A stretch of DNA of 64,000 bases from Escherichia coli (GTDB lineage: Bacteria; Pseudomonadota; Gammaproteobacteria; Enterobacterales; Enterobacteriaceae), in assembly GCF_003018255.1 (NCBI RefSeq), contig NZ_CP027440.1; one strand, given 5' to 3'. Below the pieces are notes generated by a model, which was not told the DNA's origin, searched no databases, and saw only the letters and a program-made list of their open reading frames with translations. A program made the translations under genes and the position numbers. This document shows positions 1 to 64,000 of the stretch, piece by piece; position 1 is the stretch's first letter; each line of letters starts with the position of its first letter.

Positions 1-1353
<1,353 letters not shown>

Positions 1354-1374
1354 ATAGCGCAATATTTCATCGTT

Positions 1375-1413
1375 GGTGCAAAAATGTAACGCACTGTGCA
1401 CTGTCATAGTGCG
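1375..1413 (+). promoter_or_regulatory. Putative NtrC enhancer sites upstream of glnK
   Basis: GGTGCAAAAATGTAACGCAC (1375-1394) and TGCACTGTCATAGTGCG (1397-1413) resemble TGCACC-N5-GGTGCA dyads; located about 55-90 bp upstream of a sigma-54 promoter. Confidence 0.5.
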
Positions 1414-1465
1414 TTTTTGTTTTCAATCTTCTTAACTTCCTGCTCTCCTTCTCGTTTTTCATTTC

Positions 1466-1481
1466 TGGCACACCGCTTGCA
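1466..1481 (+). promoter_or_regulatory. Sigma-54 promoter of glnK-amtB
   Basis: TGGCAC-ACCGC-TTGCA matches the -24/-12 consensus TGGCAC-N5-TTGCW; 52 bp upstream of glnK ATG. Confidence 0.8.
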
Positions 1482-1533
1482 ATACCTTCTTCGTGTAGCA
1501 GAACCATTACCGAATTCTGACCGGAGGGGATCT

Positions 1534-1872
1534 ATGAAGCTGGTGACCGTGATAATCAAACCATTCAAGCTGGAAGACGTTCGTGAAGCGTTATCTTCCA
1601 TTGGTATTCAGGGCCTGACCGTCACCGAAGTGAAAGGTTTCGGGCGTCAGAAAGGGCATGCCGAGCTGTACCGGGGAGCGGAATACAGCGTCAACTTTCT
1701 GCCAAAAGTAAAAATTGATGTGGCGATTGCTGATGACCAACTCGATGAAGTGATCGATATCGTCAGTAAGGCGGCTTACACCGGAAAAATTGGCGACGGC
1801 AAAATCTTTGTCGCTGAATTGCAACGCGTCATTCGTATTCGTACCGGCGAAGCCGACGAAGCGGCGCTGTAA
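1534..1872 (+). CDS. glnK: PII nitrogen regulatory protein GlnK
   Basis: 112 aa starting MKLVTVIIKPFKLEDV at internal ATG 1534 of the 1396-1872 ORF; upstream part of that ORF contains the promoter. Confidence 0.95.
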   Translation: MKLVTVIIKPFKLEDVREALSSIGIQGLTVTEVKGFGRQKGHAELYRGAEYSVNFLPKVKIDVAIADDQLDEVIDIVSKAAYTGKIGDGKIFVAELQRVIRIRTGEADEAAL

Positions 1873-1901
1873 TCTCTGGCACACAGCAACAGGAACGAAA
1901 A

Positions 1902-3188
1902 ATGAAGATAGCGACGATAAAAACTGGGCTTGCTTCACTGGCGATGCTGCCGGGACTGGTAATGGCTGCACCTGCGGTGGCCGATAAAGCCGACAATGCG
2001 TTTATGATGATCTGTACTGCGCTGGTGCTGTTTATGACTATTCCGGGGATTGCCCTGTTTTACGGTGGGTTGATTCGCGGCAAAAACGTGCTGTCGATGC
2101 TGACGCAGGTGACGGTGACGTTTGCACTGGTCTGTATTCTCTGGGTGGTTTACGGTTACTCGCTGGCGTTTGGTGAGGGCAACAACTTCTTCGGCAACAT
2201 TAACTGGCTGATGCTGAAAAACATCGAACTGACGGCGGTGATGGGCAGCATTTATCAGTATATCCACGTAGCGTTTCAGGGATCGTTTGCCTGCATTACC
2301 GTAGGCTTGATAGTTGGGGCGCTGGCGGAACGAATCCGCTTCTCAGCTGTGTTGATTTTCGTGGTGGTATGGCTGACGCTCTCCTACATTCCGATTGCGC
2401 ATATGGTGTGGGGCGGTGGTTTGCTGGCTTCTCACGGTGCGCTGGATTTCGCGGGTGGCACGGTGGTGCACATTAACGCCGCAATCGCCGGTCTGGTGGG
2501 CGCATATCTGATAGGCAAACGCGTGGGCTTCGGTAAAGAGGCGTTTAAACCGCACAACCTGCCGATGGTCTTCACCGGGACTGCCATTCTCTATATCGGT
2601 TGGTTTGGCTTTAACGCCGGGTCAGCGGGCACGGCGAATGAAATCGCGGCACTGGCATTTGTGAATACTGTGGTCGCAACGGCGGCGGCAATTCTTGGCT
2701 GGATCTTCGGTGAATGGGCGCTGCGCGGAAAGCCTTCACTGCTGGGAGCGTGTTCTGGTGCGATTGCCGGTCTGGTCGGCGTGACGCCAGCGTGTGGCTA
2801 CATTGGTGTTGGCGGCGCGTTGATTATCGGCGTGGTAGCTGGTCTGGCGGGCTTGTGGGGCGTTACCATGCTCAAACGCTTGCTGCGGGTGGATGATCCC
2901 TGCGATGTCTTCGGTGTGCACGGCGTTTGTGGCATTGTCGGCTGTATCATGACCGGGATTTTTGCCGCCAGCTCGCTGGGCGGCGTGGGCTTCGCTGACG
3001 GTGTGACGATGGGCCATCAGTTGCTGGTACAGCTGGAAAGCATCGCCATTACGATCGTCTGGTCCGGTGTGGTGGCGTTTATTGGCTACAAACTGGCAGA
3101 TCTGACGGTTGGCCTGCGTGTGCCGGAAGAACAGGAGCGAGAAGGGCTGGATGTCAACAGCCATGGCGAGAATGCATATAACGCGTAA
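1902..3188 (+). CDS. amtB: Ammonium channel AmtB
   Basis: 428-aa polytopic membrane ORF, signal peptide, recognised AmtB sequence; 29 bp after glnK. Confidence 0.96.
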   Translation: MKIATIKTGLASLAMLPGLVMAAPAVADKADNAFMMICTALVLFMTIPGIALFYGGLIRGKNVLSMLTQVTVTFALVCILWVVYGYSLAFGEGNNFFGNINWLMLKNIELTAVMGSIYQYIHVAFQGSFACITVGLIVGALAERIRFSAVLIFVVVWLTLSYIPIAHMVWGGGLLASHGALDFAGGTVVHINAAIAGLVGAYLIGKRVGFGKEAFKPHNLPMVFTGTAILYIGWFGFNAGSAGTANEIAALAFVNTVVATAAAILGWIFGEWALRGKPSLLGACSGAIAGLVGVTPACGYIGVGGALIIGVVAGLAGLWGVTMLKRLLRVDDPCDVFGVHGVCGIVGCIMTGIFAASSLGGVGFADGVTMGHQLLVQLESIAITIVWSGVVAFIGYKLADLTVGLRVPEEQEREGLDVNSHGENAYNA

Positions 3189-3206
3189 CAAGCACTGCAA
3201 AAAAAC

Positions 3207-3239
3207 AGCCGGACGGTTTTCACCTCCGGCTATTTTTTT
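3207..3239. terminator. Bidirectional rho-independent terminator between amtB and tesB
   Basis: AGCCGGA...TCCGGCT stem flanked by an A-run (5') and T-run (3'). Confidence 0.75.
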
Positions 3240-4098
3240 AATTATGATTACGCATTACCCCTTCCTGAACGGTCGAGGCAACCAGCACGCCATCCTGGGT
3301 ATAAAACTCACCGCGCACAAAGCCGCGAGCGCTGGACGCCGAGGTGCTCTCCACGCTATACAGCAGCCATTCATTCAAATTAAACGGGCGATGGAACCAC
3401 ATGGAATGGTCAATGGTGGCAATCTGAATCCCCGGTTCGAGAAAACCGATGCCGTGCGGCTGTAAAGCTACCGGCAGGAAATTAAGATCAGAAGCGTAAC
3501 CGAGCAGATACTGATGAACGCGCAGATCATCCGGCACGTTACCATTTGCGCGGATCCACACCTGACGATGCGGTTCTGCGACGTGCCCTTTCAGTGGGTT
3601 ATGAAACTCCACCGGACGGACTTCAAGCGGACGATCGCAGATGAATTTATCTTTCAGCACTGGCGGCAGCAGGTGCGCCAGCGATTGGGCGATTTGCGTT
3701 TCCGAAGGCAGGCCATCAGGCGCTGGCGCGGACGGCATTGTTTTTTGATGTTCGAAACCCGCTTCTGGTGCCTGGAAAGAGGCAGTCATATAAAAAATCG
3801 GTTTGCCGTTTTGAATAGCAGCAACCCGGCGGGCGCTGAAGCTGTTACCGTCACGCAGCGTTTCGACATCATAAATAATCGGCTTCTTACTATCGCCTGG
3901 GCGAAGAAAGTAGCTGTGAAACGAATGTACCAGCCGCTCTTCAGGGACGGTCTCTTTTGCAGCATACAAGGCCTGACCCACGACCTGGCCGCCAAACACC
4001 TGGCGTAAACCTAAATCTTCACTCTGGCCGCGAAAGAGTCCTTCCTCAATTTTTTCCAGATTTAACAATGTCAGTAAATTTTTTAGCGCCTGACTCAT
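3238..4098 (-). CDS. tesB: Acyl-CoA thioesterase II
   Basis: 286 aa from ATG at 4098 ([20 protein letters not shown]); longer track ORF has a spurious 28-aa extension. Confidence 0.94.
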
Positions 4099-4315
4099 AT
4101 AACTCTCCAGTAACAAAGCTGCCGCAGCAAGCCAAAGTGAGTTGAGTATAACGCAAATTTGCCACTGGTCCGATGGGTGCAATGGTCTGAATTACGGGCT
4201 AATTACAGGCAGAAATGCGTGATGTGTGCCACACTTGTTGACGTTACTATTTTGTTAACCACTCTTCCGGCGAGGAAAGTTAGCCCGCTGGTGCATTGAT
4301 AATAAGGAGAAGTGA

Positions 4316-4885
4316 ATGAAACTCGTGCACATGGCCAGTGGTTTAGCGGTTGCGATTGCGTTGGCGGCTTGCGCAGATAAAAGCGCGGATATTCAGACGC
4401 CAGCACCGGCTGCAAATACGTCTATTTCAGCAACACAACCTGCTATCCAGCAACCGAATGTCTCCGGTACCGTCTGGATCCGTCAGAAAGTCGCACTGCC
4501 GCCTGATGCTGTGCTGACCGTGACACTTTCTGACGCGTCGTTAGCCGATGCGCCGTCAAAAGTGCTGGCGCAGAAAGCGGTGCGTACCGAAGGTAAACAG
4601 TCACCATTCAGCTTTGTTCTGCCATTTAACCCGGCAGATGTTCAGCCGAACGCGCGTATTCTATTGAGTGCGGCGATTACCGTGAATGACAAACTGGTAT
4701 TTATTACCGATACCGTTCAGCCGGTGATCAATCAGGGCGGAACTAAAGCCGACCTGACATTGGTGCCGGTGCAGCAAACCGCCGTGCCGGTTCAGGCCAG
4801 CGGTGGCGCAACGGCTACCGTACCTTCGACTTCACCAACTCAGGTGAATCCGTCTTCGGCAGTTCCAGCTCCTACGCAATATTAA
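4316..4885 (+). CDS. ybaY: Lipoprotein YbaY
   Basis: 189-aa ORF with lipobox LAAC after signal peptide; recognised ybaY. Confidence 0.9.
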   Translation: MKLVHMASGLAVAIALAACADKSADIQTPAPAANTSISATQPAIQQPNVSGTVWIRQKVALPPDAVLTVTLSDASLADAPSKVLAQKAVRTEGKQSPFSFVLPFNPADVQPNARILLSAAITVNDKLVFITDTVQPVINQGGTKADLTLVPVQQTAVPVQASGGATATVPSTSPTQVNPSSAVPAPTQY

Positions 4886-4892
4886 GCGCAGT

Positions 4893-4918
4893 TAACCCTC
4901 TCCGCCCGGAGAGGGTTA
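4893..4918. terminator. Hairpin between convergent ybaY and atl
   Basis: Perfect 12-bp stem TAACCCTCTCCG/CGGAGAGGGTTA with 2-nt loop; overlaps atl stop codon. Confidence 0.6.
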
Positions 4919-5305
4919 GTAGTTCCAGCGATAACGCTGCAAGTCGATTTGCCCGCTTCCCGATACCATCACACCTTCTGCCAGTAATGCCTGTCGTTGA
5001 CGCTGTAAATCCGGTCCGGTTAGCGAAATTGTGCCGTGGCGATTAACCACCCGGTGCCAGGGCAAGGTGCTGCCTTCGGGGAGACGCTTTAACACACCGC
5101 CTACCTGGCGCGCGGCGCGCGGCGATCCCGCCAGTTTCGCCACATCACCGTAAGTGGTGACATAGCCTTCGGGAATAGCGGCGACGATTTGCCAGACGCG
5201 TTGGGGAAATGAATCTTCTTTTTCCATCTTTTCTTCCTGAGGTAATTTTTCAGCATAATCTGGAAAAACGCCCGAGTGAAGCCGCATTGCGCAAGAAACC
5301 AGCAT
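4916..5305 (-). CDS. atl: Alkyltransferase-like DNA-binding protein (MGMT-family, no active Cys)
   Basis: 129 aa from ATG 5305 (MLVSCAMRLHSG...); PWHRVV motif of the MGMT fold; recognised ybaZ/atl. Confidence 0.88.
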   Translation of the reverse strand: MLVSCAMRLHSGVFPDYAEKLPQEEKMEKEDSFPQRVWQIVAAIPEGYVTTYGDVAKLAGSPRAARQVGGVLKRLPEGSTLPWHRVVNRHGTISLTGPDLQRQRQALLAEGVMVSGSGQIDLQRYRWNY

Positions 5306-5381
5306 CTGGCACGCAATGGGTTGCAATTAGCCGGGGCAGCAGTGATAATGCGCCTGCGCGTTGGTTCTCAACGCTCTCAAT

Positions 5382-5495
5382 GGGGGCTCTGTTGGTTCTC
5401 CCGCAACGCTACTCTGTTTACCAGGTCAGGTCCGGAAGGAAGCAGCCAAGGCAGATGACGCGTGTGCCGGGATGTAGCTGGCAGGGCCCCCACCC
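5382..5495 (+). ncRNA. ffs: 4.5S RNA (SRP RNA)
   Basis: 114 nt GGGGGCTCTGTTGGTTCTCCCGCAACGC...GGCAGGGCCCCCACCC matches the E. coli 4.5S RNA sequence as I remember it, including GGAA tetraloop region CAGGTCCGGAAGGAAGCAGCC. Confidence 0.95.
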
Positions 5496-5605
5496 ATTTC
5501 TGCCTCCCCCCGTTTCGTCAAAAAATCCCAACATGGCTAAACTTTAACCACAACTGACGTCGCAAGAATTGTCTGGCTGCGCAGTACGCTTCGGAGGTAT
5601 GTCTG

Positions 5606-5959
5606 ATGAAGTATGTTGATGGTTTTGTTGTTGCCGTTCCTGCCGATAAAAAGGATGCCTATCGGGAAATGGCCGCTAAGGCCGCGCCATTATTTAAAGA
5701 GTTCGGTGCGCTTCGTATTGTCGAATGCTGGGCCAGCGATGTACCGGATGGTAAAGTGACCGATTTTCGTATGGCGGTGAAAGCGGAAGAGAATGAAGAG
5801 GTTGTCTTTAGCTGGATTGAATACCCTTCAAAAGAGGTCCGCGACGCTGCTAATCAAAAGATGATGTCGGACCCACGGATGAAAGAGTTCGGCGAGTCCA
5901 TGCCGTTTGACGGCAAGCGAATGATCTATGGTGGATTCGAATCAATCATCGACGAGTAG
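5606..5959 (+). CDS. ybaA: DUF1428-family protein YbaA
   Basis: 117-aa ORF with GGAGG SD 8 bp upstream; recognised ybaA. Confidence 0.9.
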   Translation: MKYVDGFVVAVPADKKDAYREMAAKAAPLFKEFGALRIVECWASDVPDGKVTDFRMAVKAEENEEVVFSWIEYPSKEVRDAANQKMMSDPRMKEFGESMPFDGKRMIYGGFESIIDE

Positions 5960-6000
5960 GTAGCGTGACGGGCTGTGCGGCGTGCCGTCAGCCCTAAAAT

Positions 6001-7557
6001 TCACAAATGTTGCTCGGCCCAGCGTAAGAAATCCTCTTTCGGTAATGCCTTGCTGTAGAGCCAGCCCTGACCGTAGTGCACGCCATGCTGGCGTAACCAC
6101 TCTTCTTGTTTACTGGTTTCGATTCCCTCCGCTACCATTTTCAGTTTCAGTGTTTTTGCCATTTCGATGATATGCGGCGTGACATTTTTATATTCCAGCG
6201 CATCAACGAAAGATTTATCGATCTTCAGAATGTCGACATCCAGATCCTGTAAATAACTTAAACTTGAATACCCCGTACCAAAATCATCGAGATAAATTTC
6301 ATGGCCCGCCTCCCGGTAGCGAGAAATTATCGGGGCGCTGGTTTTCGGATCGGCAAACTCGCGTTCAGTGAGTTCAAGCGCGATCTGTCTGGGATTAACC
6401 TGATAGTGATTGATCATTTCACGCAGCAATTGCGGGATTTTTTCCGAGGTGAGCACGGTGGATTCAAGATTGATCGAAATATGCTGCTGCGGATGCTGAC
6501 GCAGCCAGTCGCCCATATCTTCGAAGACGCTTCTTATGATCAGTAGCGTCAACGGCTCAGAAAGGCCCGTTTGCTGTGCCAGCGGAATAAAACTATCTGG
6601 TGACAACCAACTACCGTCTGTCTGCGGCCAGCGCGCCAGTGCCTCAGCACCGACAATTTTGCCATTGGCTAAGGAGACAATCGGCTGATAGTGCACGCAA
6701 ATATCACGATTTTCGATAGCATCCTGCAGCCGATGATGCGGTGACTGGATACGGCGCAAAATACGCAGCACAAACATCGCTGCCAGCAGGCCAATCACCA
6801 ACCCGAGCGGTAACCAAATAAAGACTTGCCGATGCCAGCCTTTCTGCAACATTTTCGTTGAAGACCAGGTGATGATCGAAATATTCATTTCCGGGAAGGG
6901 CAGGATATCGTAAATGATTCCATTATTTTCGATATGCTCACCGGGTGTTTTTTGTAGTCTGGTAATAATTCCCTGAGCAATTTCATCGCTGCTGGTTATC
7001 ACAACGTTATGGGCATTGCCAATAATGGCGGCATCAATTTGCCATGAGCTATAGGGAATGACATCAATAAAGGAAGCGGGGTCGATCATGACGACATAAT
7101 GTGCCGTTCCCATGGCAACCATGTAACGGATAATGCCTAAATCGTTATGCGATGTTAACCAGACACGATAACCATCTTTCGAAATTTTACCTGGCTCGGG
7201 GAAGGTATCGGGCGGGCTTTCATGCTCCAGAGACGAACACTGGGGAACGTTGTTATCGATATAAACCACTTCCTGAATATAGCGATAACTGTAAGATACC
7301 CGACGCATTTCCATGAGATGGGCTTCGCTACAGGCAGCGCCTTGCCATCTTTCCAGCTCTTGCAGCGCATCTTTCCCTTGTGTCGCCACCTTATTGGCCC
7401 GAATAGCGACGCGGGAGGAATACGTATTCAGCTCTTCAATAAATGATGTTTCTACCTGCTGATGGGCCAGCCAGATGCTTAAGCCGACAGGCAGCAATAC
7501 TGAAAGAATCAGTACTCCCGAAATAAGGCCGACCAGATGTCGTGTTCTCACCAGCAT
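6001..7557 (-). CDS. pdeB: c-di-GMP phosphodiesterase (CSS-motif sensor + EAL domain)
   Basis: N-terminal TM, periplasmic region, second TM, EAL domain (EALARW, DDFGTGYSSL); K-12 start may be the GTG at 7551. Confidence 0.9.
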   Translation of the reverse strand: MLVRTRHLVGLISGVLILSVLLPVGLSIWLAHQQVETSFIEELNTYSSRVAIRANKVATQGKDALQELERWQGAACSEAHLMEMRRVSYSYRYIQEVVYIDNNVPQCSSLEHESPPDTFPEPGKISKDGYRVWLTSHNDLGIIRYMVAMGTAHYVVMIDPASFIDVIPYSSWQIDAAIIGNAHNVVITSSDEIAQGIITRLQKTPGEHIENNGIIYDILPFPEMNISIITWSSTKMLQKGWHRQVFIWLPLGLVIGLLAAMFVLRILRRIQSPHHRLQDAIENRDICVHYQPIVSLANGKIVGAEALARWPQTDGSWLSPDSFIPLAQQTGLSEPLTLLIIRSVFEDMGDWLRQHPQQHISINLESTVLTSEKIPQLLREMINHYQVNPRQIALELTEREFADPKTSAPIISRYREAGHEIYLDDFGTGYSSLSYLQDLDVDILKIDKSFVDALEYKNVTPHIIEMAKTLKLKMVAEGIETSKQEEWLRQHGVHYGQGWLYSKALPKEDFLRWAEQHL

Positions 7558-51984: not shown

Positions 51985-52638
51985 CTTAAGAAGTCCGTCG
52001 GTCAGGGGGAGCATGAACTCTCCATCCTCACCGGAGTTGAGCTGGTTGTCAAACGTGGCGAGACCATCGCACTGGTGGGCGAGTCGGGATCGGGTAAGTC
52101 AACTTTGCTGGCGATCCTCGCCGGGCTGGATGACGGCAGCAGTGGCGAAGTGAGTCTGGTGGGACAACCGCTACATAATATGGACGAAGAAGCGCGGGCA
52201 AAGTTGCGCGCGAAGCACGTCGGCTTTGTTTTTCAGTCATTTATGTTAATTCCTACCCTTAACGCGCTGGAAAACGTCGAGCTTCCGGCGCTGCTGCGCG
52301 GTGAGAGTAGCGCGGAAAGTCGTAACGGGGCGAAAGCGTTGCTCGAACAGTTAGGGCTGGGTAAACGTCTGGATCATCTTCCGGCACAGCTTTCCGGCGG
52401 TGAACAGCAACGAGTGGCGCTGGCACGAGCCTTTAACGGTCGACCTGATGTGCTGTTTGCCGACGAACCCACCGGCAATCTTGACCGACAGACGGGCGAT
52501 AAAATTGCCGACCTGCTATTTTCCCTCAACCGTGAGCATGGCACCACGTTGATTATGGTGACCCACGACCTGCAACTGGCGGCACGCTGCGACCGCTGCT
52601 TACGGCTGGTGAACGGGCAATTGCAGGAGGAAGCATGA
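51952..52638 (+). CDS. ybbA: ABC ATPase YbbA (LolD/MacB-like)
   Basis: 228-aa ORF; GESGSGKST, LSGGEQQR, LFADEPTGNLD; 5' end overlaps divergent tesA by 33 bp. Confidence 0.94.
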   Translation: MPAENIVEVHHLKKSVGQGEHELSILTGVELVVKRGETIALVGESGSGKSTLLAILAGLDDGSSGEVSLVGQPLHNMDEEARAKLRAKHVGFVFQSFMLIPTLNALENVELPALLRGESSAESRNGAKALLEQLGLGKRLDHLPAQLSGGEQQRVALARAFNGRPDVLFADEPTGNLDRQTGDKIADLLFSLNREHGTTLIMVTHDLQLAARCDRCLRLVNGQLQEEA

Positions 52639-55049
52639 TTGCACGTTGGTTCTGGCGCGAATGGCGCTCGCCGTCGCTATTAATTGTCTGGCTGGCGCTA
52701 AGCCTGGCGGTGGCCTGCGTGCTGGCGCTGGGCAATATCAGCGATCGCATGGAGAAGGGCTTAAGCCAGCAAAGCCGGGAGTTTATGGCGGGCGATCGGG
52801 CGTTGCGCAGTTCACGCGAAGTGCCACAAGCGTGGCTGGAGGAAGCGCAAAAGCGCGGCCTGAAAGTCGGCAAGCAGCTGACTTTCGCCACAATGACCTT
52901 TGCAGGCGACACACCGCAGCTGGCGAACGTCAAAGCGGTGGATGATATCTACCCGATGTATGGCGATCTGCAAACTAATCCCCCTGGCCTGAAACCGCAG
53001 GCGGGCAGCGTATTGCTGGCCCCACGCCTGATGGCACTGCTTAACCTGAAAACAGGCGACACCATCGACGTGGGTGATGCCACCTTGCGGATTGCCGGAG
53101 AAGTGATTCAGGAACCGGATTCCGGTTTTAACCCCTTCCAGATGGCTCCGCGTCTGATGATGAATCTGGCGGATGTCGATAAAACCGGAGCCGTGCAGCC
53201 GGGGAGTCGGGTCACCTGGCGCTATAAATTCGGCGGCAGCGAGAACCAGCTCGACGGCTATGAGAAATGGTTGTTACCCCAGCTTAAACCTGAACAACGC
53301 TGGTACGGTCTGGAACAGGACGAAGGCGCGCTGGGGCGATCGATAGAACGTTCGCAACAGTTCCTGCTGCTTTCGGCGCTTCTGACCTTGCTGCTGGCGG
53401 TGGCGGCGGTTGCGGTGGCGATGAATCATTACTGTCGCAGTCGCTACGACTTGGTGGCGATCCTCAAGACGCTGGGGGCAGGGCGAGCGCAACTGCGTAA
53501 GTTAATCGTCGGTCAGTGGTTGATGGTGCTGGCGCTTTCAGCCGTTACCGGTGGTGCGATAGGCCTGTTGTTCGAAAACGTGTTGATGGTGCTGCTCAAG
53601 CCCGTTTTGCCTGCTGCACTACCGCCAGCCAGCCTCTGGCCGTGGTTGTGGGCGCTGGGCACCATGACGGTCATCTCGCTGCTGGTGGGGCTACGACCGT
53701 ACCGCTTGTTGCTGGCAACGCAGCCTTTACGCGTATTACGTAATGATGTGGTCGCGAACGTCTGGCCGCTGAAGTTTTATCTGCCGATTGTCAGTGTGGT
53801 GGTTGTGCTGCTGCTCGCCGGATTAATGGGTGGCAGCATGCTGCTTTGGGCGGTGCTGGCGGGCGCGGTAGTACTGGCTTTGCTGTGCGGTGTGCTGGGC
53901 TGGATGCTGCTGAATGTACTTCGCCGCATGACGCTGAAATCGCTACCTCTGCGCCTGGCGGTTAGCCGCCTGTTACGTCAGCCGTGGTCAACGTTAAGCC
54001 AGCTTTCGGCATTTTCGCTCTCCTTTATGCTGCTGGCGCTGTTGCTGGTATTGCGTGGCGATCTGCTCGACCGCTGGCAGCAGCAGCTACCTCCAGAAAG
54101 CCCGAACTACTTTTTAATTAACATCGCCACAGAACAGGTAGCACCGCTAAAAGCGTTCCTCGCGGAACATCAGATAGTCCCGGAATCGTTTTATCCGGTG
54201 GTGCGGGCGCGGCTGACGGCGATTAACGATAAGCCGACAGAAGGCAATGAAGATGAGGCGCTCAATCGCGAACTCAATCTTACCTGGCAAAATACGCGGC
54301 CCGATCATAATCCGATTGTCGCCGGTAACTGGCCGCCAAAAGCCGATGAAGTGTCGATGGAAGAGGGGCTGGCGAAACGCTTAAACGTTGCCCTCGGTGA
54401 TACCGTGACTTTTATGGGCGATACCCAGGAGTTCCGCGCTAAAGTGACCAGCCTGCGCAAAGTGGACTGGGAAAGTCTGCGGCCTAATTTCTATTTTATT
54501 TTCCCTGAAGGGGCATTAGACGGGCAACCGCAGAGCTGGCTTACCAGTTTCCGCTGGGAGAATGGCAACGGCATGTTGACGCAACTCAACCGCCAGTTCC
54601 CTACTATTAGCCTGTTAGACATTGGCGCGATTTTAAAACAGGTCGGTCAGGTGCTGGAGCAGGTAAGTCGGGCGCTGGAGGTGATGGTGGTGCTGGTCAC
54701 CGCCTGCGGTATGTTGCTGTTGCTGGCACAGGTGCAGGTGGGAATGCGTCAGCGTCATCAGGAGCTGGTGGTGTGGCGCACACTCGGTGCGGGGAAAAAA
54801 CTGCTGCGTACCACGTTGTGGTGTGAGTTCGCCATGCTTGGGTTTGTTTCTGGCCTGGTAGCCGCAATTGGTGCGGAAACGGCGCTGGCAGTGTTGCAGG
54901 CGAAAGTGTTTGATTTTCCGTGGGAGCCAGACTGGCGATTGTGGATTGTGCTGCCGTGCAGCGGTGCACTGCTGCTGTCGCTTTTCGGCGGCTGGCTGGG
55001 TGCGCGACTGGTTAAGGGTAAGGCGCTGTTCAGGCAGTTTGCGGGATGA
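52635..55049 (+). CDS. ybbP: FtsX/MacB-like ABC permease YbbP
   Basis: 804-aa ORF overlapping ybbA by 4 nt; duplicated FtsX-type TM bundles. Confidence 0.93.
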   Translation: MIARWFWREWRSPSLLIVWLALSLAVACVLALGNISDRMEKGLSQQSREFMAGDRALRSSREVPQAWLEEAQKRGLKVGKQLTFATMTFAGDTPQLANVKAVDDIYPMYGDLQTNPPGLKPQAGSVLLAPRLMALLNLKTGDTIDVGDATLRIAGEVIQEPDSGFNPFQMAPRLMMNLADVDKTGAVQPGSRVTWRYKFGGSENQLDGYEKWLLPQLKPEQRWYGLEQDEGALGRSIERSQQFLLLSALLTLLLAVAAVAVAMNHYCRSRYDLVAILKTLGAGRAQLRKLIVGQWLMVLALSAVTGGAIGLLFENVLMVLLKPVLPAALPPASLWPWLWALGTMTVISLLVGLRPYRLLLATQPLRVLRNDVVANVWPLKFYLPIVSVVVVLLLAGLMGGSMLLWAVLAGAVVLALLCGVLGWMLLNVLRRMTLKSLPLRLAVSRLLRQPWSTLSQLSAFSLSFMLLALLLVLRGDLLDRWQQQLPPESPNYFLINIATEQVAPLKAFLAEHQIVPESFYPVVRARLTAINDKPTEGNEDEALNRELNLTWQNTRPDHNPIVAGNWPPKADEVSMEEGLAKRLNVALGDTVTFMGDTQEFRAKVTSLRKVDWESLRPNFYFIFPEGALDGQPQSWLTSFRWENGNGMLTQLNRQFPTISLLDIGAILKQVGQVLEQVSRALEVMVVLVTACGMLLLLAQVQVGMRQRHQELVVWRTLGAGKKLLRTTLWCEFAMLGFVSGLVAAIGAETALAVLQAKVFDFPWEPDWRLWIVLPCSGALLLSLFGGWLGARLVKGKALFRQFAG

Positions 55050-55477
55050 TGAGAGTAAATAAGGGGCGTTCTGGTTGAATGGAACGCCTTGTTTAAATTA
55101 ATTCTACAATATGTTTCATTGATGATGTTATTGAATTGGTGATTTCCTATCTTTCTATTGCTGATATTAATCTGAATCGGTGGAGTTTAATGATTTTAAA
55201 TATAGCCCTACAAAAATAACTCAGACTAATAAAATCATAAATCATATGCGTTGAATGGATATTATCCATATAGTGAATTTGTTGATAATGAATTCATCTG
55301 TGCTAAAAATGTTAGTTTAATAAAATATTGAAAGTGACCTGTAATAACAGTTGTTGTTGATTGAGAACAAATAAGTTTATGTGAAAAATATATAAATACA
55401 TTAGCTGGTCTTGTGTGTCATTTTATTTTTTTGTTGCTAACACAGGGATATGAACAATAACTAAAAGGGCACTTTAT

Positions 55478-56933
55478 ATGAGCGGAAAACCAGCGGCGCG
55501 TCAGGGAGATATGACTCAGTATGGCGGTCCCATTGTCCAGGGTTCGGCAGGTGTAAGAATTGGCGCGCCCACCGGCGTGGCGTGCTCGGTGTGTCCGGGC
55601 GGGATGACCTCGGGCAACCCGGTAAATCCGCTGCTGGGGGCGAAGGTGCTGCCCGGCGAGACGGACCTTGCGCTGCCCGGCCCGCTGCCGTTCATTCTCT
55701 CCCGCACCTACAGCAGCTACCGGACGAAGACGCCTGCGCCGGTGGGGATTTTTGGCCCCGGCTGGAAAGCGCCTTCTGATATCCGCTTACAGATACGCGA
55801 TGATGTACTGGTACTCAACGACAACGGCGGACGGAGCATTCACTTTGAGCCGCTGCTGCCGGGTGAGGCGGTGTACAGCCGCAGCGAGTCCCTGTGGCTG
55901 GTGCGTGGCGGTAAGGCAACGCAGCCGGACGGCCACACGCTGGCACGGCTGTGGGCGTCGCTGCCGCCGGATATCCGGTTAAGCCCGCATCTTTACCTGG
56001 CGACCAGCAGCGCACAGGGGCCGTGGTGGATACTGGGGTGGTCTGAGCGGGTGCCGGGTGCTGAGGACGTACTGCCAGCGCCGCTGCCGCCGTACCGGAT
56101 GCTTACCGGGCTGGCGGACCGCTTCGGGCAGACGCTGACGTACCGGCGTGAGGCCGCCGGTGACCTGGCCGGGGAAATCACCGGCGTGACGGACGGTGCC
56201 GGGCGGGAGTTCCGTCTGGTGCTGACCACGCAGGCGCAGCGGGCGGAAGAGGCCCGTAAACAGCACACCGCTTCCTTATTTTCCCCTGACACCCCCCGCC
56301 CTCTTTCAGACTCTGCGTTCCCCGACACACTGCCCGGTACGGAATACGGCCCCGACAGGGGCATCCGTCTTTCGGCGGTGTGGCTGATGCACGACCCGGC
56401 ATACCCGGAAAGCCTGCCCGGTGCGCCACTGGCGCGGTACACGTATACGGAAGCCGGTGAACTGCTGGCGGTATATGACCGCAGCAATACGCAGGTGCGC
56501 GCTTTCACGTATGACGCGCAGCACCCGGGCCGGATGGTGGGGCACCGTTATGCGGGAAGGCCGGAGATGCGCTACCGCTACGACGATGCGGGGCGGGTGG
56601 TGGAGCAGCTGAACCCGACAGGCCTGAGTTACCGCTACCAGTATGAGCAGGACCGCATCACCATCACGGACAGCCTGAACCGGCGAGAGGTGCTGCATAC
56701 AGAAGGCGGGGCCGGGCTGAAGCGGGTGGTGAAAAAAGAACTGGCGGACGGCAGCGTCACGCACAGCGGGTATGACGCGGCAGGAAGGCTCACGGCACAG
56801 ACGGACGCGGCGGGACGGCGGACAGAGTACGGCCTGAATGTGGTGTCCGGCGATATCACGGATATCACCACGCCGGACGGGCGGGAGACGAAATTTTACT
56901 ATAACGACGGGAACCAGTTAACGGCGGTGGTGT
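55478..56933 (+). pseudogene. rhsD: Rhs polymorphic toxin gene, 5' fragment (PAAR-like N-terminus + start of YD-repeat core), cut by IS
   Basis: MSGKPAARQGDMTQYGGPIVQGSAGVRIGAPTGVACSVCPGG...; YD repeats; frame runs 12 codons into the IS and stops at 56969-56971; locus between ybbP and selU = K-12 rhsD position. Confidence 0.9.
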
Positions 56934-56967
56934 CCTTGACCCACGATATTCAGACAGTCGTTGTATC

Positions 56968-57849
56968 TTAAGTTGACGTTACCCGCTGACGTCGATATTC
57001 CCTTGGTGAGAGATAACCTAACGCACTATGCGGATGGGTTTCATTGTAATGCTCGATCGCCACTGCAAGGTTATGCAATGCCGTTCTTACATTCGGTTTC
57101 GGCATGAACGCGATGTAGTCTTCTTTCATCGTTTTCACGAACCTTTCTGCCATTCCATTGCTCTGAGGGCTACTGACTGCCGTTGTGCAGGGCTCCAGAT
57201 TCAACTCTCTGGCGAACTGCCGTGTTTCATGAGCTGTATAAGCCGAACCGTTATCAGTCAGCCACTGGATTGGCCGTTCCGCTCCTTTATCGCCAAAGCG
57301 TTTTTCTATTGCTCCTAACATGACATCCTGCACCGTTGCTTTGTCATAACCTCCCGTGCTTGCGGCCCAGTCTATGGCTTCACGATCGCAACAGTCCAGT
57401 GCGAACGTGACACGCAGTTTTGCGCCATCATCACAACCGAACTCAAAGCCATCGGAACACCAGCGCTGGTCGCTTTCCTTCACCGATATTCGGCCTTTAT
57501 GTTCCCGCTGCGGCCGTGAAGGTTTGTCATGTAACAACAACAGGTTATTTTCGCTCATTATCCGATAAACGCGCTTTGCATTCACGAACGGCACTCCTTT
57601 GTTACGGGACTGTCGTCTGAGAATGGCCCAGACACGACGATAGCCATATGTCGGCATATCGCTGATGATATCAAGGATACGTGCTAACACTTCCGCATCC
57701 GCAGCCTCATCACATCTGCGACGACGTTTATTCGGCTTATTACCAGATGTTTTCATCCGTTGTGCCAGTTGCGCACGCGACACGCCCAGAATACGGCTTA
57801 CCAGGGTTATTCCTTGTCCGTTGGCAACAAGGGCGCATGCGCTATCCAT
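56968..57849 (-). CDS. IS2-group transposase OrfB (DDE integrase core)
   Basis: 293-aa ORF; [25 protein letters not shown] (D,D,E); strong by-eye similarity to IS2 InsD. Confidence 0.9.
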
Positions 57850-58199
57850 TTTCGCGACTGACCATACTCCACCGCTTCTTTGAGGATCTCAACTTCCATG
57901 GTTTTCTTACCCAGCAAGCGCTGTAACTCTTTTATTTGTTTTATAGCGGCAGCCAGTTCTGAGGCAGGAACGACATCCTCTCCGGCAGCAACAGCAGTGA
58001 GACTTCCTTCCAGATATTGTTTTTTCCACTTAAACAACAGGCTGGGCTGAATACCATGCAAACGCGCCACATGGGACACCGTCATACCGGGTTCCATTGT
58101 CTGCTGAATAATGGCGATTTTTTCCTGAGGAGTTTTACGTTTACGAAGCTCCTGCCCCAGCAAAATTCCAGTCATCTCAAAATTAGCACTAGTAGACAT
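57807..58199 (-). CDS. IS2-group transposase OrfA (HTH)
   Basis: [38 protein letters not shown]...[19 protein letters not shown] resembles IS2 InsC; start uncertain (ATG 58199, 58175 or 58232); overlaps orfB by 43 nt in the -1 frame. Confidence 0.85.
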
Positions 58200-58263
58200 A
58201 TATCCAAGCCTATCTCTTATTTTAAGATACATCCACTGTCTGGCGTTTCAAGGGGCCGGTTCA

Positions 58264-61038
58264 CAGTTAACGGCGGTGGTGTACCCGGACGGGCTGGAGA
58301 GCAGCCGGGCATATGATGAGCTGGACAGACTGGTATCGGAGACATCGCGCAGCGGGGAGACAGTACGCTACCGCTACGATGACGTGCACAGTGAGTTACC
58401 GGCGACGACAACGGATGCGACGGGCAGCACCCGGCAGATGACCTGGAGCCGCTACGGGCAGTTGCTGGCCTTCACCGACTGCTCGGGCTACCAGACCCGC
58501 TATGAATACGACCACTTTGGTCAGATGACGGCGGTCCATCGTGAGGAAGGCATCAGCACGTACAATACCTATAACCCGCGCGGCCAGCTGGTCAGCCGGA
58601 AAGACGCACAGGGCCGTGAAACGCGGTATGAATACAACGCCGCAGGCGACCTGACTGCCGTTATCACCCCGGACGGCAACCGGAGCGAGACACAGTACGA
58701 TGCGTGGGGAAAGGCGGTCAGCACCACGCAGGGCGGGCTGACGCGCAGTATGGAGTACGATGCTGCCGGACGTGTCATCAGCCTGACCAACGAGAACGGC
58801 AGTCACAGCGACTTCAGCTACGATACGCTTGACCGGCTGGTACAGCAGCGCGGCTTTGACGGGCGGACGCAACGTTATCATTATGACCTGACCGGAAAAC
58901 TCACGCAGAGTGAAGATGAGGGGCTTGTCATCCTCTGGTACTACGATGAATCGGACCGTATCACTCACCGCACGGTGAACGGCGAACCGGCAGAGCAGTG
59001 GCAGTATGATGGCCACGGCTGGCTGAGAGAAATCAGCCACCTGAGCGAAGGCCACCGTGTTGCCGTCCACTATGGCTACGACGATAAGGGCCGTCTGACC
59101 GGGGAGCGCCAGACGGTGGAGAACCCGGAGACGGGGGAACTGCTGTGGCAGCATGAGACGAAACAGGCATACAACGAACAGGGGCTGGCAAACCGCGTCA
59201 CGCCGGACAGCCTGCCGCCGGTGGAGTGGCTGGCCTATGGCAGCGGTTATCTGGCGGGCATGAAGCTGGGCGGGACGCCGCTGCTGGAGTACACGCGCGA
59301 CCGCCTGCACCGGGAGACGGTGCGCAGCTTCGGCAGCATGGCAGGCAATACAGCCGCATATGAACTGACCAGCACTTACACCCCCGCAGGCCAGTTACAG
59401 AGCCGGCACCTGAACAGCCTGGTGTTTGATTGTGACTATAACTGGAATGACAACGGCGACCTGATGCGCATCAGCGGCCCGCGACAGACGCGGGAATACG
59501 GCTACAGCGCCACGGGCAGGCTGGAGAGCGTGCGCACCCTCGCACCGGACCTGGACATCCGCATCCCGTATGCCACCGACCCGGCGGGCAACCGGCTGCC
59601 GGACCCGGAGCTGCACCCGGACAGTACACTCACAGTGTGGCCGGATAACCGAATCACCGAAGACGCGCACTACCTGTACCGTTACGATGAATACGGCAGG
59701 CTGGCGGAGAAGACGGACCGCATCCCGGCGGGTGTGATACGGACGGACGACGAGCGGACCCACCACTACCACTACGACAGCCAGCACCGCCTGGTGTTCT
59801 ATACGCGGATACAGCATGGCGAGCCACTGGTCGAGAGCCGCTACCTTTACGACCCGCTGGGCCGCCGGACGGGTAAACGGGTGTGGCGTCGCGGGCGTGA
59901 CCTGACAGGATGGATGTCGCTGTCGCGTAAACCGGAGGAGACGTGGTACGGGTGGGACGGCGACAGGCTGACGACGGTGCAGACTGACAGCACGCGTATC
60001 CAGACGGTGTACCAGCCGGGAAGCTTCACACCGCTCATCCGCATCGAAACAGACGTGACCGAACTGGAGAAAGCGCAGCGGCGGAGCCTGGCGGAGAAGC
60101 TCCAGCAGGAAGGGAGCGAGGACGGACACGGCGTGGTGTTCCCGGCTGAACTGGTGCGGCTGCTGGACAGGCTGGAGGAAGAAATCCGGACAGACCGCGT
60201 GAGCAGTGAAAGCCGGGCGTGGCTTGCGCAGTGCGGGCTGACGGTGGAGCAACTGGAAAAACAGGTGGAGCCGGAATATACACCGGCGCGAAAAGTTCAT
60301 CTTTACCACTGCGACCACCGGGGCCTGCCGCTGGCGCTTATCAGCGAAGACGGCAATACGGTGTGGAGCGCGGAGTATGATGAATGGGGAAACCTGCTTA
60401 ATGAGGAGAACCCGCATCATGTGTATCAGTCATACCGTCTGCCGGGGCAGCAGCATGATGAGGAGTCGGGGCTGTACTACAACCGGAACCGGTACTACAA
60501 TCCGTTGCTGGGACGATATATTACTCAGGACCCGATTGGGCTGGCGGGGGGATGGAGTCTGTATGCGTATCCGCTGAATCCGGTGAATGGTATTGATCCA
60601 TTAGGATTAAGTCCTGCAGATGTAGCGTTAATGCGAAAAAAAGAACAATTAAACCATCAAAGAGCATGGGATATATTATCTGATACTTATGATGATATGA
60701 AGAGATTAAATTTAGGTGGGACTGATCAATTTTTCCATTGTATGGCATTTTGTCGAGTGTCTAAATTAAATGACGCTGGTGTTAGCCGATCAGCGAAAGG
60801 GCTGGGTTATGAAAAAGAGATTAGAGATTACGGGTTAAATATGTTCGGTATGTACGGCAGAAAAGTAAAGTTATCCCATTCTGAGATGATTGAAGATAAT
60901 AAAAAAGACTTGGCTGTAAATGAACATGGGTTGACATGTCCATTAACACAAGATTGCTCAAATAGATGTATTGATTATATTAATCCAGAGCATAAAAAAA
61001 CGATAAAGGCTTTACAAGATGCTGGCTATCTCAAGTAA
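58264..61038 (+). pseudogene. rhsD: Rhs polymorphic toxin gene, 3' fragment (YD-repeat core + C-terminal toxin tip)
   Basis: Frame [23 protein letters not shown]... continues the 5' fragment exactly; YD repeats throughout; core ends [27 protein letters not shown] (to 60609). Confidence 0.9.
60610..61035 (+). other. Rhs C-terminal variable toxin domain (142 aa), AT-rich
   Basis: Begins right after the PxxxxDPxGL core-terminating motif; composition switches abruptly from GC-rich core to AT-rich tip; five Cys; by-eye serum-amyloid-A-like motifs (see findings). Confidence 0.7.
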
Positions 61039-61510
61039 CATCTCAAAGATGGTAATATTTATTTTTGCTATTATAATCGTTGTTTTTTTATGCGTGACTA
61101 CTTATCTTTATTTACACAAAGATGAATCTCTTGTAAGTAAGCATTACATAAACTATATGGCAATACCAGAAAGTGATGGGGTTTTTACATGGCTCCCAGA
61201 TTTTTTTCCGCACGTAGCGGTGGATATATCAATATCCACAAATGTAGAAGATGATTATTTTTTTTCTTATTTTTCCCTAACAATCGATGATGGGGGGAGG
61301 TTTAAGAAAACATTGACTGTGAGGGCCAGGGAACAAGTGGCGAAAATCGTATCAGAGAATGATCCAGATACAAAAAAAGTGTGGTGTAAATATGGTAAAA
61401 TACCAGGGCAAGGGGATAGCGTAAACCTTTTTTTTGTTGGTGAAATTAATGTTACGCATTATTTTATAACAAATATTGGAGCTGGGTTACCTGATGCTTG
61501 TGCAGAGTAA
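61019..61510 (+). CDS. Candidate Rhs immunity protein with N-terminal TM anchor
   Basis: 163-aa AT-rich ORF overlapping the toxin 3' end by 20 nt; hydrophobic helix [22 protein letters not shown]; position typical of rhsI genes. Confidence 0.65.
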
Positions 61511-61876
61511 TTGCTTGAATTAAGAGTCTATCCCATATCGAAGTCGTCAACTTCGTAGTGAGGAAAAGTATAATCCCTGACTGAGAAAAGACATGTCGGC
61601 TATTGTGTAAAGCCATATAGCTCAGACGATGAATATCTACTCGTATTCAGTTGTTTATTGAGGGTGAGTTCCGACCCTGAAACAACAAATAAAATGAACA
61701 GCCAGAGAGTTTACATAGAATTGCACTGGTCTTTTACGATATCTGACATTGTGTAATACATATTCAGCCATGCATTAATTAAAATGTTACGTGTTTAATG
61801 TGAGTCCCTATCTGAAAATAAATAATCCTTCCGGATTAAAATAAATTCTCGCCGGGAAAGAAAGAGGAAATAAACC

Positions 61877-61972
61877 ATTAGCGGAAAACCAGCGGCACGC
61901 CAGGGTGACATGCCCCAGTACGGCGGCCCGATAGTCCAGGGTTCAGCGGGGGTACTGATAGTCGCGCCGACT
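61877..61972 (+). pseudogene. Orphan Rhs N-terminal (PAAR-like) fragment, start codon ATG->ATT
   Basis: ATTAGCGGAAAACCAGCGGCACGCCAGGGTGACATGCCCCAGTACGGCGGCCCGATAGTCCAGGGTTCAGCG... aligns to 55478-55573 of the main rhs (ISGKPAARQGDMPQYGGPIVQGSAG); similarity ends about 61972. Confidence 0.8.
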
Positions 61973-62024
61973 GCATCGAGAACTCCATACAACTTTTTAC
62001 GGAACGTCACCTGATAAAATTTGT

Positions 62025-62432
62025 TCAGTATCGTCTTTTGAGATTCTCAAGGTTATGGAGTAACCAGACAGAACGGACACCACTGTCGGAGATAAAAACC
62101 CCCTGTTTACGCAGCTCGTTGCTGGCCCGGTGCTGACCATGTGTCGGGAAAGCGACGGCGTAATCAACAACAGCCTGTTCAATTGCCTCATCGGTACGGT
62201 TCTTAAGGTTAGGAGCGCGGCGACTACGATTAATCTGCGCATCCACACCGCCTTCAGCGGCCAGTTCGCGGTAACGATAAAACGTATCACGCGAAACGCC
62301 CATGATTTTACAGGCTTTTGATACGTTGCTGAGTTCTTCAGCCAGATTGAGCAAACCGGCTTTGTGTTTGATGACGGGATTGGCAGTATGAAGCATGAGA
62401 GTTACCTCTTGTTTTGGATAAGGATTCGACAC
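62025..62432 (-). mobile_element. Truncated transposase N-terminal fragment (HTH only; ylbG-like, probably IS481-type)
   Basis: 135-aa ORF: ...LSNVSKACKIMGVSRDTFYRYRELAAEGGVDA...; no DDE core follows; no terminal IRs identified. Confidence 0.6.
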
Positions 62433-62511
62433 TCATATCAAAACCGGTAACTCTCAACCTTTCAAGGCCATGTGTCAGATCAAGTCGCGACTAATACAAA
62501 TACGTCCCTCA

Positions 62512-63621
<1,110 letters not shown>

Positions 63622-63674
63622 TCAAATCAGCTTGCGCGCTATTTTACGCGCCAACGCGCAAGGAAACTTGATTT

Positions 63675-64000
63675 TTAACTGCGTGGGTTGCCGAAAATTT
63701 CTAAAAATCCGCTGATTTCCGGCCTGCGCTGGGTAAACAAGGTCACAATATCTTCTATCGCTTTGCCGCTGCCAAATTTGCGCCATGCCAGACTCAATGG
63801 TGAAGGAGGGCGCATCGTTGGGATTACCCGGCTGACCAGTTGTTGATTATCGATCATTGACTGGCAAAGTGATTTTGGCAAAAAACCAATGCCAACGCCC
63901 GCCAGATGGGCGGCGATTTTCGTTTCCATATCGGGAACAATAATCTCTTTTTGCCCCGGCAATCGCCAGGCGACGCGTTTGGTTAGTGTGCGGGCGCTGT
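63675..64000 (-). CDS. allS: LysR-family regulator AllS, C-terminal part (5' end beyond window)
   Basis: Minus-strand frame open from the window edge to stop at 63675; LysR effector-domain-like sequence; K-12 neighbour of selU. Confidence 0.8.

Follow-up and report, generated by a model that had tools for sequence, protein, structure and literature searches.

An insertion sequence splits the Rhs toxin gene at the rhsD locus of an Escherichia coli chromosome and leaves the adjacent candidate immunity gene intact

We examined a stretch of 64,000 nucleotides (nt) of Escherichia coli DNA (contig NZ_CP027440.1 of assembly GCF_003018255.1; hereafter the window), in which positions 55478-61038 constitute one Rhs toxin gene at the ybbP-mnmH (rhsD) site. 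The gene, here called rhs, no longer has a single uninterrupted reading frame, being broken at codon 485 by an insertion sequence (IS). As it stands the split rhs is a pseudogene of the Rhs / YD-repeat toxin family and not a working member of it. We assign a probability of about 0.88 to the reading that an rhs effector gene has been knocked out by one recent IS insertion and that its immunity gene has been retained. A preliminary description of this DNA, made from the letters, had proposed that an rhs toxin gene at the rhsD locus was split by an IS, and the open reading frames (ORFs), the IS and the flanking genes all bear this out.

The split gene

The features upon which the argument depends are these (aa, amino acids; bp, base pairs).

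55478..56971, plus strand: rhs 5' ORF, 497 aa, start MSGKPAARQGD (from the ORF list)
55478..56932, plus strand: rhs 5' fragment, native codons 1-485 (ORF list, Pfam, NCBIfam)
55478-55618, plus strand: PAAR-like N-terminal piece, 47 aa
56915..56930: left copy of the 16-bp target-site duplication, CAGTTAACGGCGGTGG
56931..58263, minus strand: IS3-family element, IS2 subgroup, 1333 bp (alignment of copies, NCBIfam, inverted repeats)
56968..57849, minus strand: orfB of the IS, DDE/rve transposase domain (Pfam rve, E = 1.3e-19; NCBIfam IS2 TnpB, 411.6 bits; transpos_IS3, 211 bits)
57807..58232, minus strand: orfA of the IS, helix-turn-helix protein (Pfam HTH_Tnp_1, E = 1.7e-18; NCBIfam IS2 TnpA, 201.6 bits)
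58264..58279: right copy of the 16-bp target-site duplication
58264..61038, plus strand: rhs 3' fragment, with the remaining YD-repeat shell, the C-terminal plug with its aspartyl protease, and the toxin tip
58276 (GTG)..61038, plus strand: rhs 3' ORF, 920 aa (ORF list)
60529..60609, plus strand: DPIG-X18-DPLGL aspartyl-protease / PxxxxDPxGL motif, end of the conserved core (sequence)
60610..61038 (61035 without the stop), plus strand: variable C-terminal toxin domain, 142 aa, low G+C, helical (composition, Pfam, model)
61019..61510, plus strand: candidate immunity gene, YbbD family, 163 aa (NCBIfam NF011298, 373 bits against a cut-off of 326, positions 1-163 of 163)

How do the two fragments relate to the profiles of the family? 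The 5' ORF matches Pfam DUF6531 (E = 7e-19, residues 46-123) and RHS_repeat (E = 1e-25), while the 3' fragment matches RHS_repeat (E = 1e-50) and the RHS core-end domain PF03527 (E = 1.2e-17). The 3' fragment also matches NCBIfam Rhs_assc_core, the TIGR03696 match stopping exactly at DPLGL. Against the 1261 positions of NCBIfam RHS_core, the 5' ORF covers 1-487 and the 3' ORF 486-1261, and the bits of both fragments sum to 2686, the cut-off being 2000. This coverage is complementary, and therefore one complete core is spread over the two ORFs. G+C stands at 60-68% across both, and falls to 34-38% from about 60600.

The damage at the junctions is simple. Beyond codon 485 the 5' ORF continues through 12 IS-encoded codons to a stop at 56969-56971. 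The earliest in-frame start of the 3' fragment is the GTG at 58276, inside the duplicated target; with the IS ending at 58263, this GTG lies 13 nt past the end of the element, just where the preliminary description had placed it. A Shine-Dalgarno sequence is not recognisable before it.

One gene or two?

Deletion in silico of the IS together with one copy of the duplication (1349 nt) yields an ORF of 4212 nt that encodes 1403 aa and carries a terminal stop only, which reproduces the single frame of about 1403 aa anticipated earlier. To what extent does this reconstruction resemble an allele that was never split? The locus of E. coli JNE112863 (L001) holds an intact 'RHS element core protein', WP_456287203.1, of 1400 aa. 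The comparison with other rhsD alleles that the preliminary description had suggested turns out collinear: 1371 of the 1403 residues (98%) are identical to those of the JNE112863 allele, and the protein junction, YYNDGNQLTAVV followed by YPDGLESS, is the same in both. At the level of DNA, window positions 53550-56933 align to L001 1-3375 at 98.8%, and positions 58264-64000 to L001 3357-9093 at 99.1%. The two alignments overlap on L001 by the 19-nt repeat only. We conclude, on these alignments, that both rhs fragments derive from one gene, because the reconstructed ORF is uninterrupted and collinear with intact alleles of other E. coli.

The insertion sequence

The IS lies in the orientation opposite to rhs, inserted after rhs codon 485. 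It begins with TGTCCTTGACCC at 56931 and ends with GGCCGGTTCA at 58263, and its termini are of the form TG...CA, with imperfect inverted repeats like those of IS2. Its two frames, orfA and orfB, are both open and overlap one another, and the best sub-family matches of their products are the IS2 proteins. Copies that are 99.6% identical carry the annotation 'programmed frameshift'. Elements labelled 'IS3 family transposase', and otherwise unnamed, share 99.5-99.7% identity with it on chromosomes and plasmids of E. coli. Its nearest named relative is ISEc48, at about 88% nt identity; identity to IS2 itself is about 70%. In length it differs from most copies solely by an in-frame deletion of 3 nt (one codon, Asn) in the start region of orfA, 58190-58200, and a plasmid copy (L004) has the same one-codon deletion.

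ISEc27, described in PMC8417528 as a multi-copy element of K-12 J53, was considered as the identity of this IS and set aside: nothing linked the two.

At 56915-56933 and again at 58264-58282 stands the same 19-nt sequence, CAGTTAACGGCGGTGGTGT, an exact direct repeat whose copies are 1349 nt apart. Is all of it target duplication? The ends of the element and the duplication were set by alignment with ten other copies of the IS at nine distinct sites (in one of the ten the left end is not recognisable). Since these other copies fix the boundaries of the element at 56931-58263, the true target duplication is 16 bp and not 19. The last three nucleotides of the repeat (TGT) agree only by chance in the target and in the terminus of the IS.

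When did the element arrive? Neither rhs fragment has a second lesion. None of 5,426 complete E. coli genomes contains the insertion junction; the best coverage among them, 82%, corresponds to the query minus the IS. The junction 37-mer is likewise absent from the GTDB representative genomes and from the scanned JGI metagenome contigs, and the truncated 497-aa product has no exact record that we could find. The insertion is probably recent and strain-specific, because there is no second lesion, the IS has kept its frames open and none of the collections searched contains the junction.

The intact protein

The reconstructed protein is made up, from its N-terminus, of a PAAR-like piece of 47 aa, a DUF6531 plug, a YD-repeat shell, a DPxG-X18-DPxG protease motif and a tip of 142 aa. 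Its closest solved structures are all Rhs effectors of a type VI secretion system (T6SS). The best of them is Tse5 of Pseudomonas aeruginosa (8cp6_B, E = 3e-118), and the next are RhsA, Tse15, the Rhs of Salmonella bongori and Tre23/Rhs1. DUF6531 forms the N-terminal plug in Tse5, which is cleaved between residues 47 and 48 (PMC10684867). The shell chain 8cp6_B starts at P48 (PVNPMLGSKLLP), whose partner in the alignment is residue 48 of the window protein (PVNPLLGAKVLP). At the other end, the C-terminal plug carries a protease motif with the spacing DPXGX19DPXG in Tse5 and DPXGX18DPXG in Enterobacteriaceae (PMC10684867). In the window the conserved core ends in the manner of the Rhs class, with DPIG-X18-DPLGL followed by the variable tip of low G+C.

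How secure is the label PAAR-like? In Tse5 a 5-kDa fragment, residues 1-47, includes a PAAR-like domain on which secretion depends (PMC10684867), and the N-terminus of the window protein, up to residue 47, matches that fragment in position. The Pfam PAAR_motif profile gives 16.6 bits against a cut-off of 27, with residues 2-20 on profile positions 51-69 of 70. 'PAAR-like' would thus be a fair label for roughly the first 20-47 residues, a PAAR domain as such being below the Pfam threshold. Of the layout put forward in the preliminary description, the YD shell, the DPxGL motif and the variable tip stand as they were; the PAAR-like part shrinks to about 20-47 residues that are sub-threshold in Pfam.

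The intact 1403-aa effector, then, would dock on a VgrG spike by its PAAR-like N-terminal piece, and its C-terminal aspartyl protease, which follows the plug and the YD-repeat cage, would free the 142-aa tip.

The toxin tip and the immunity gene

What kind of toxin did the gene encode? No Pfam or NCBIfam family matches the tip above threshold. Its match to Pfam SAA (E = 1.6e-4) is below threshold. An AlphaFold2 model, built from a shallow alignment, is helical, with a predicted local distance difference test (pLDDT) score of 67. The seven best Foldseek matches of the model in the PDB are all SAA1 or SAA3, with probabilities of up to 0.90, E of about 0.8 and target-normalised template-modelling scores (TM-scores) of 0.51-0.64. 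The tip as modelled resembles vertebrate serum amyloid A; we speak of resemblance rather than membership because the pLDDT of 67 is moderate and the Foldseek E-values are weak, though the matches are consistent. Such a resemblance has already been reported for rhsD of EDL933 (z0651) and for other O157 Rhs proteins (PMC7216683). An exhaustive HMMER search placed the tip domain in 93 cluster representatives, mostly at or near the C-terminus of the protein (a few matches are short fragments). By its distribution across these representatives, this placement is the pattern expected for a polymorphic-toxin tip.

The candidate immunity gene is of full length, and its first 20 nt overlap the end of rhs. 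Its relatives are annotated 'YbbD family protein', and neither Pfam nor NCBIfam supplies a functional name for the product. A hydrophobic N-terminal segment is visible in the YbbD-family sequence. A membrane-anchored immunity protein hints at a target of the toxin in the envelope.

The tip found on the main core here is elsewhere an orphan. K-12-like strains, represented by E. coli SA31-1, have a different main tip with ybbC, and keep the window tip only as a downstream orphan fragment beside the YbbD gene; the tip arrangements were compared between positions 730-6609 of the SA31-1 locus (L018) and window 55478-61510. An orphan-type tip on the main core in the lineage of the window is, as far as this arrangement tells, a known kind of rhs tip exchange, by displacement or by deletion via recombination between core repeats.

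On the plus strand at 61877-61975, 3' of the immunity gene, lies what is left of a second rhs N-terminus (ISGKPAARQGDMPQYGGPIVQGSAGV), in which ATT replaces ATG. A fragment of the ylbG transposase (62025-62432, minus strand) abuts it. The remnant is identical in the intact-allele strains (as in L001), whose annotation gives it as a hypothetical protein, incomplete. Its presence suggests that the site once had an earlier rhs gene, cut short by a different IS.

Delivery and expression after the insertion

If rhs has been split, what remains of its function? A single recent transposition of an ISEc48-related element would have knocked out the gene, duplicating 16 bp of target. The remaining two-thirds of the cage, together with the toxin, are left without a promoter or a ribosome-binding site of their own, whereas the intact immunity gene would presumably still protect against kin that carry the same toxin. 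By analogy with known effectors the split gene very probably yields no deliverable effector, because the N-terminus is needed for spike docking and secretion and a complete cage is needed for export. The requirement of the cage for export by the T6SS is the claim made in the title of Donato et al. 2020 (reference 22 of PMC8636562).

Could the IS itself drive the 3' fragment? Our promoter scans register sigma-70-like consensus matches only, with a threshold of 9/12. The only candidate on the plus strand within the IS is a 9/12 match at 57524-57551. No plus-strand site reaches the threshold between 57551 and 58856, nor is there any match of at least 9/12 on that strand between 58884 and 61019. 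The promoter-like site of the IS itself (58251-58224, minus strand) points away from the 3' fragment. In these consensus scans there is no convincing promoter out of the IS toward the 3' fragment, or upstream of the tip and immunity genes.

Four points weigh against the picture of a disabled T6SS weapon. The sequence gives no sign that this strain ever expressed the intact gene or delivered its product. A window of 64 kb cannot show the presence of a T6SS in the rest of the genome. The PAAR assignment, as stated, is weak by Pfam (16.6 bits against 27). Finally, read-through is possible from the rhs promoter, from the 9/12 match in the IS or from weak 8/12 matches near the tip; some expression of toxin and immunity protein may persist.

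There is a minor alternative. Tip and immunity genes might be transcribed from an internal promoter in the 3' part of rhs, as a module like a type II toxin-antitoxin pair, in which case the IS would remove export only. There is a precedent in Salmonella Typhimurium rhs, where tip and immunity are transcribed from internal promoters that lie 89 nt upstream of the sequence coding for PxxxxDPxGL (PMC7043789); the product of these transcripts is toxic, and growth in macrophages is affected (Starsta et al. 2020, PMC7043789). In the window both genes are intact, and about 80 nt upstream of the PxxxxDPxGL-type motif there is a weak -10-like TACAAT (60496-60501), which together with its -35 scores 8/12. 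However, the candidate promoters are sub-threshold at 8/12, and for a product consisting of the tip alone neither a start codon nor a ribosome-binding site was identified. The toxin is also of a different type, and the membrane-anchored immunity protein, hinting at an envelope target, makes a cytoplasmic role less obvious. We regard this arrangement as unlikely, at perhaps one chance in five.

Might the insertion be a reversible switch, precise excision by slippage restoring wild-type rhs in a subpopulation? The structure would permit it: exact 19-nt repeats (16 bp plus the three matching bases) abut an IS with inverted ends, and removal of the IS with one repeat gives exactly the intact frame. 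RecA-independent precise excision rises with the length of the repeat. The 19-nt repeats should favour exact reversion by slippage, compared with an ordinary IS3-family insertion. However, the excision frequencies to be expected are very low and selection for switching is not known; the proposal, moreover, is drawn from a single assembled sequence. We consider it quite improbable.

That the fragments are different rhs paralogues, joined by IS-mediated recombination or by misassembly of repeated cores, is rejected on the collinearity and the perfect duplication: E. coli genomes do hold several near-identical rhs cores (a median of 5 matching places per genome) and rearrangements are often mediated by ISs, but a perfect 16-bp target duplication stands on both sides of the element, both flanks run gap-free on one intact allele at the same chromosomal site (98.8% and 99.1%), ybbP and mnmH are in their normal places, and at the junction, where the preliminary description would have looked for a discontinuity, there is none, the 19-nt repeat being the only overlap. 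We therefore return to the knockout of one rhs gene by one IS.

Genomic setting

Two genes flank the locus.

52635-55049: ybbP
62512-63606, minus strand: mnmH/selU

Beyond them, window 1-48694 is one collinear match, at 99.0%, to the mdlB-fetA region of JNE112863; window 30100-55050 is matched in a single piece at 99.4%, and the remainder matches L001. Because these collinear matches to JNE112863 span the window, the window apart from the IS is, as aligned, ordinary E. coli core chromosome.

Does the absence of secretion genes tell us anything? No VgrG, Hcp or Tss genes occur in the 64-kb window, and none are annotated in the collinear mdlB...allS region of JNE112863. The rhsA-D genes of EDL933 are described as orphans outside the vgrG islands (PMC7216683). 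For the rhsD locus of E. coli it is normal to have no secretion genes close by, and this one is in that respect nothing special. The preliminary description was right that none lie in the window.

IS insertions recur in the rhs region. In E. coli TUM1886 (H3), for example, elements of the IS110 and IS1397 families lie within the same rhs locus.

Length of the target duplication

The insertion in rhs raises a question of its own: is a duplication of 16 bp usual for an element of this kind? IS3-family duplication lengths are conserved within each subgroup, and those of the IS2 subgroup are 5 bp (PMC10045372). The window element has the overlapping, frameshifted ORFs and the TG...CA imperfect inverted repeats of that subgroup; what it lacks is the 5-bp duplication (3-5 bp for the family).

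We surveyed copies of the element and of its relatives (loci L002-L004, L006-L009, L011-L017, L019-L020 and L023-L024). The window IS is flanked by duplications of 15-16 bp at all nine independent sites, that in rhs being 16 bp. ISEc48 (88% identity) has 15-17 bp at four of five sites and 5 bp at the fifth. A relative with 78% identity, from Klebsiella and Enterobacter plasmids, has 15 bp at both informative sites. IS2 controls, handled in the same way, gave 5 bp. The three elements combined have long duplications (15-17 bp) at 15 of 16 informative sites. On one further plasmid, pZ0117KP0004-1 of K. pneumoniae (L021), the 78%-identity relative lies directly inside an IS2 end and has no duplication, an instance of nested or rearranged ISs.

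A division by duplication length has a counterpart elsewhere: the duplications of IS481, IS1202 and IS481EU fall into discrete length classes, of about 4-6, about 15-16 and about 25 bp (PMC10045372). From these flanking sequences, a split between short and long duplications seems to exist within the IS2 subgroup also. The more specific proposal is that the IS2 subgroup contains a sub-clade so far unrecognised, with the window IS among its members, in which the transposase staggers its target cuts by 15-16 bp instead of 5 bp; this we advance only tentatively and would give rather less than even odds. We found no published account of a long duplication for ISEc27, ISEc17, ISEc36 or ISEc48 in the literature; ISfinder lay outside this search.

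Significance

The knockout itself is already known in kind: an IS has recently disabled a familiar Rhs effector gene of E. coli, which is a routine event. Disruption of rhs genes by ISs is common, and earlier work on E. coli documents the allele, the type of toxin, the immunity gene and the absence of T6SS genes in linkage. The strain is marked, at most, as a recent loser of one interbacterial weapon that has kept the matching shield, which is to be expected where immunity is still useful.

The side finding on the length of the duplication is the more interesting of the two. If it is true, the split known from IS481, IS1202 and IS481EU between short (about 4-6 bp) and long (about 15-16 bp) duplications extends to the IS3 family, and genes hit by such elements would be flanked by repeats long enough to favour exact reversion. 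If the lengths hold, related pairs such as IS2 and the ISEc48-like elements, at about 70% DNA identity, would differ in the spacing of their cuts. Such pairs would serve to ask how assemblies of DDE transposases and integrases set the distance between the two sites of strand transfer.

Comparison with known systems

The nearest counterparts of the window gene are the Rhs elements at the ybbP-mnmH site of other E. coli, WP_456287203.1 of JNE112863 and z0651 of EDL933, with which it shares the site, the core, the type of tip and the YbbD-family gene. It differs from JNE112863 in that its rhs is split by an IS, whereas that of JNE112863 is intact.

Among proteins of solved structure, Tse5 (RhsP1; PDB 8cp6), a pore-forming toxin delivered by the T6SS, has in common with the window protein the PAAR-like piece of about 47 aa, the proline at position 48, the DUF6531 plug, the YD cage and the DPxG...DPxG protease. 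The two part company at the tip, which is like serum amyloid A in the window protein and a pore-former in Tse5, and in the spacing of the motif, X18 in the former and X19 in the latter. The remaining traits of Tse5, namely autocleavage at the N-terminus, a VgrG partner and dependence on the T6SS, are putative for the E. coli protein.

The main and orphan rhs modules of Salmonella Typhimurium resemble the window in that the pair of tip and immunity gene is separable from the part concerned with delivery. In Salmonella the internal promoter has been demonstrated, for another toxin family, whereas the window offers promoter matches of 8/12 only.

The element responsible for the split has, in common with IS2 and ISEc48, a frameshifted orfA/orfB pair, an rve DDE domain, TG...CA ends and IS2-like inverted repeats. 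It departs from the IS2 subgroup, as does ISEc48, in the duplication of its target: 15-17 bp in these two elements, against the 5 bp stated for the subgroup.

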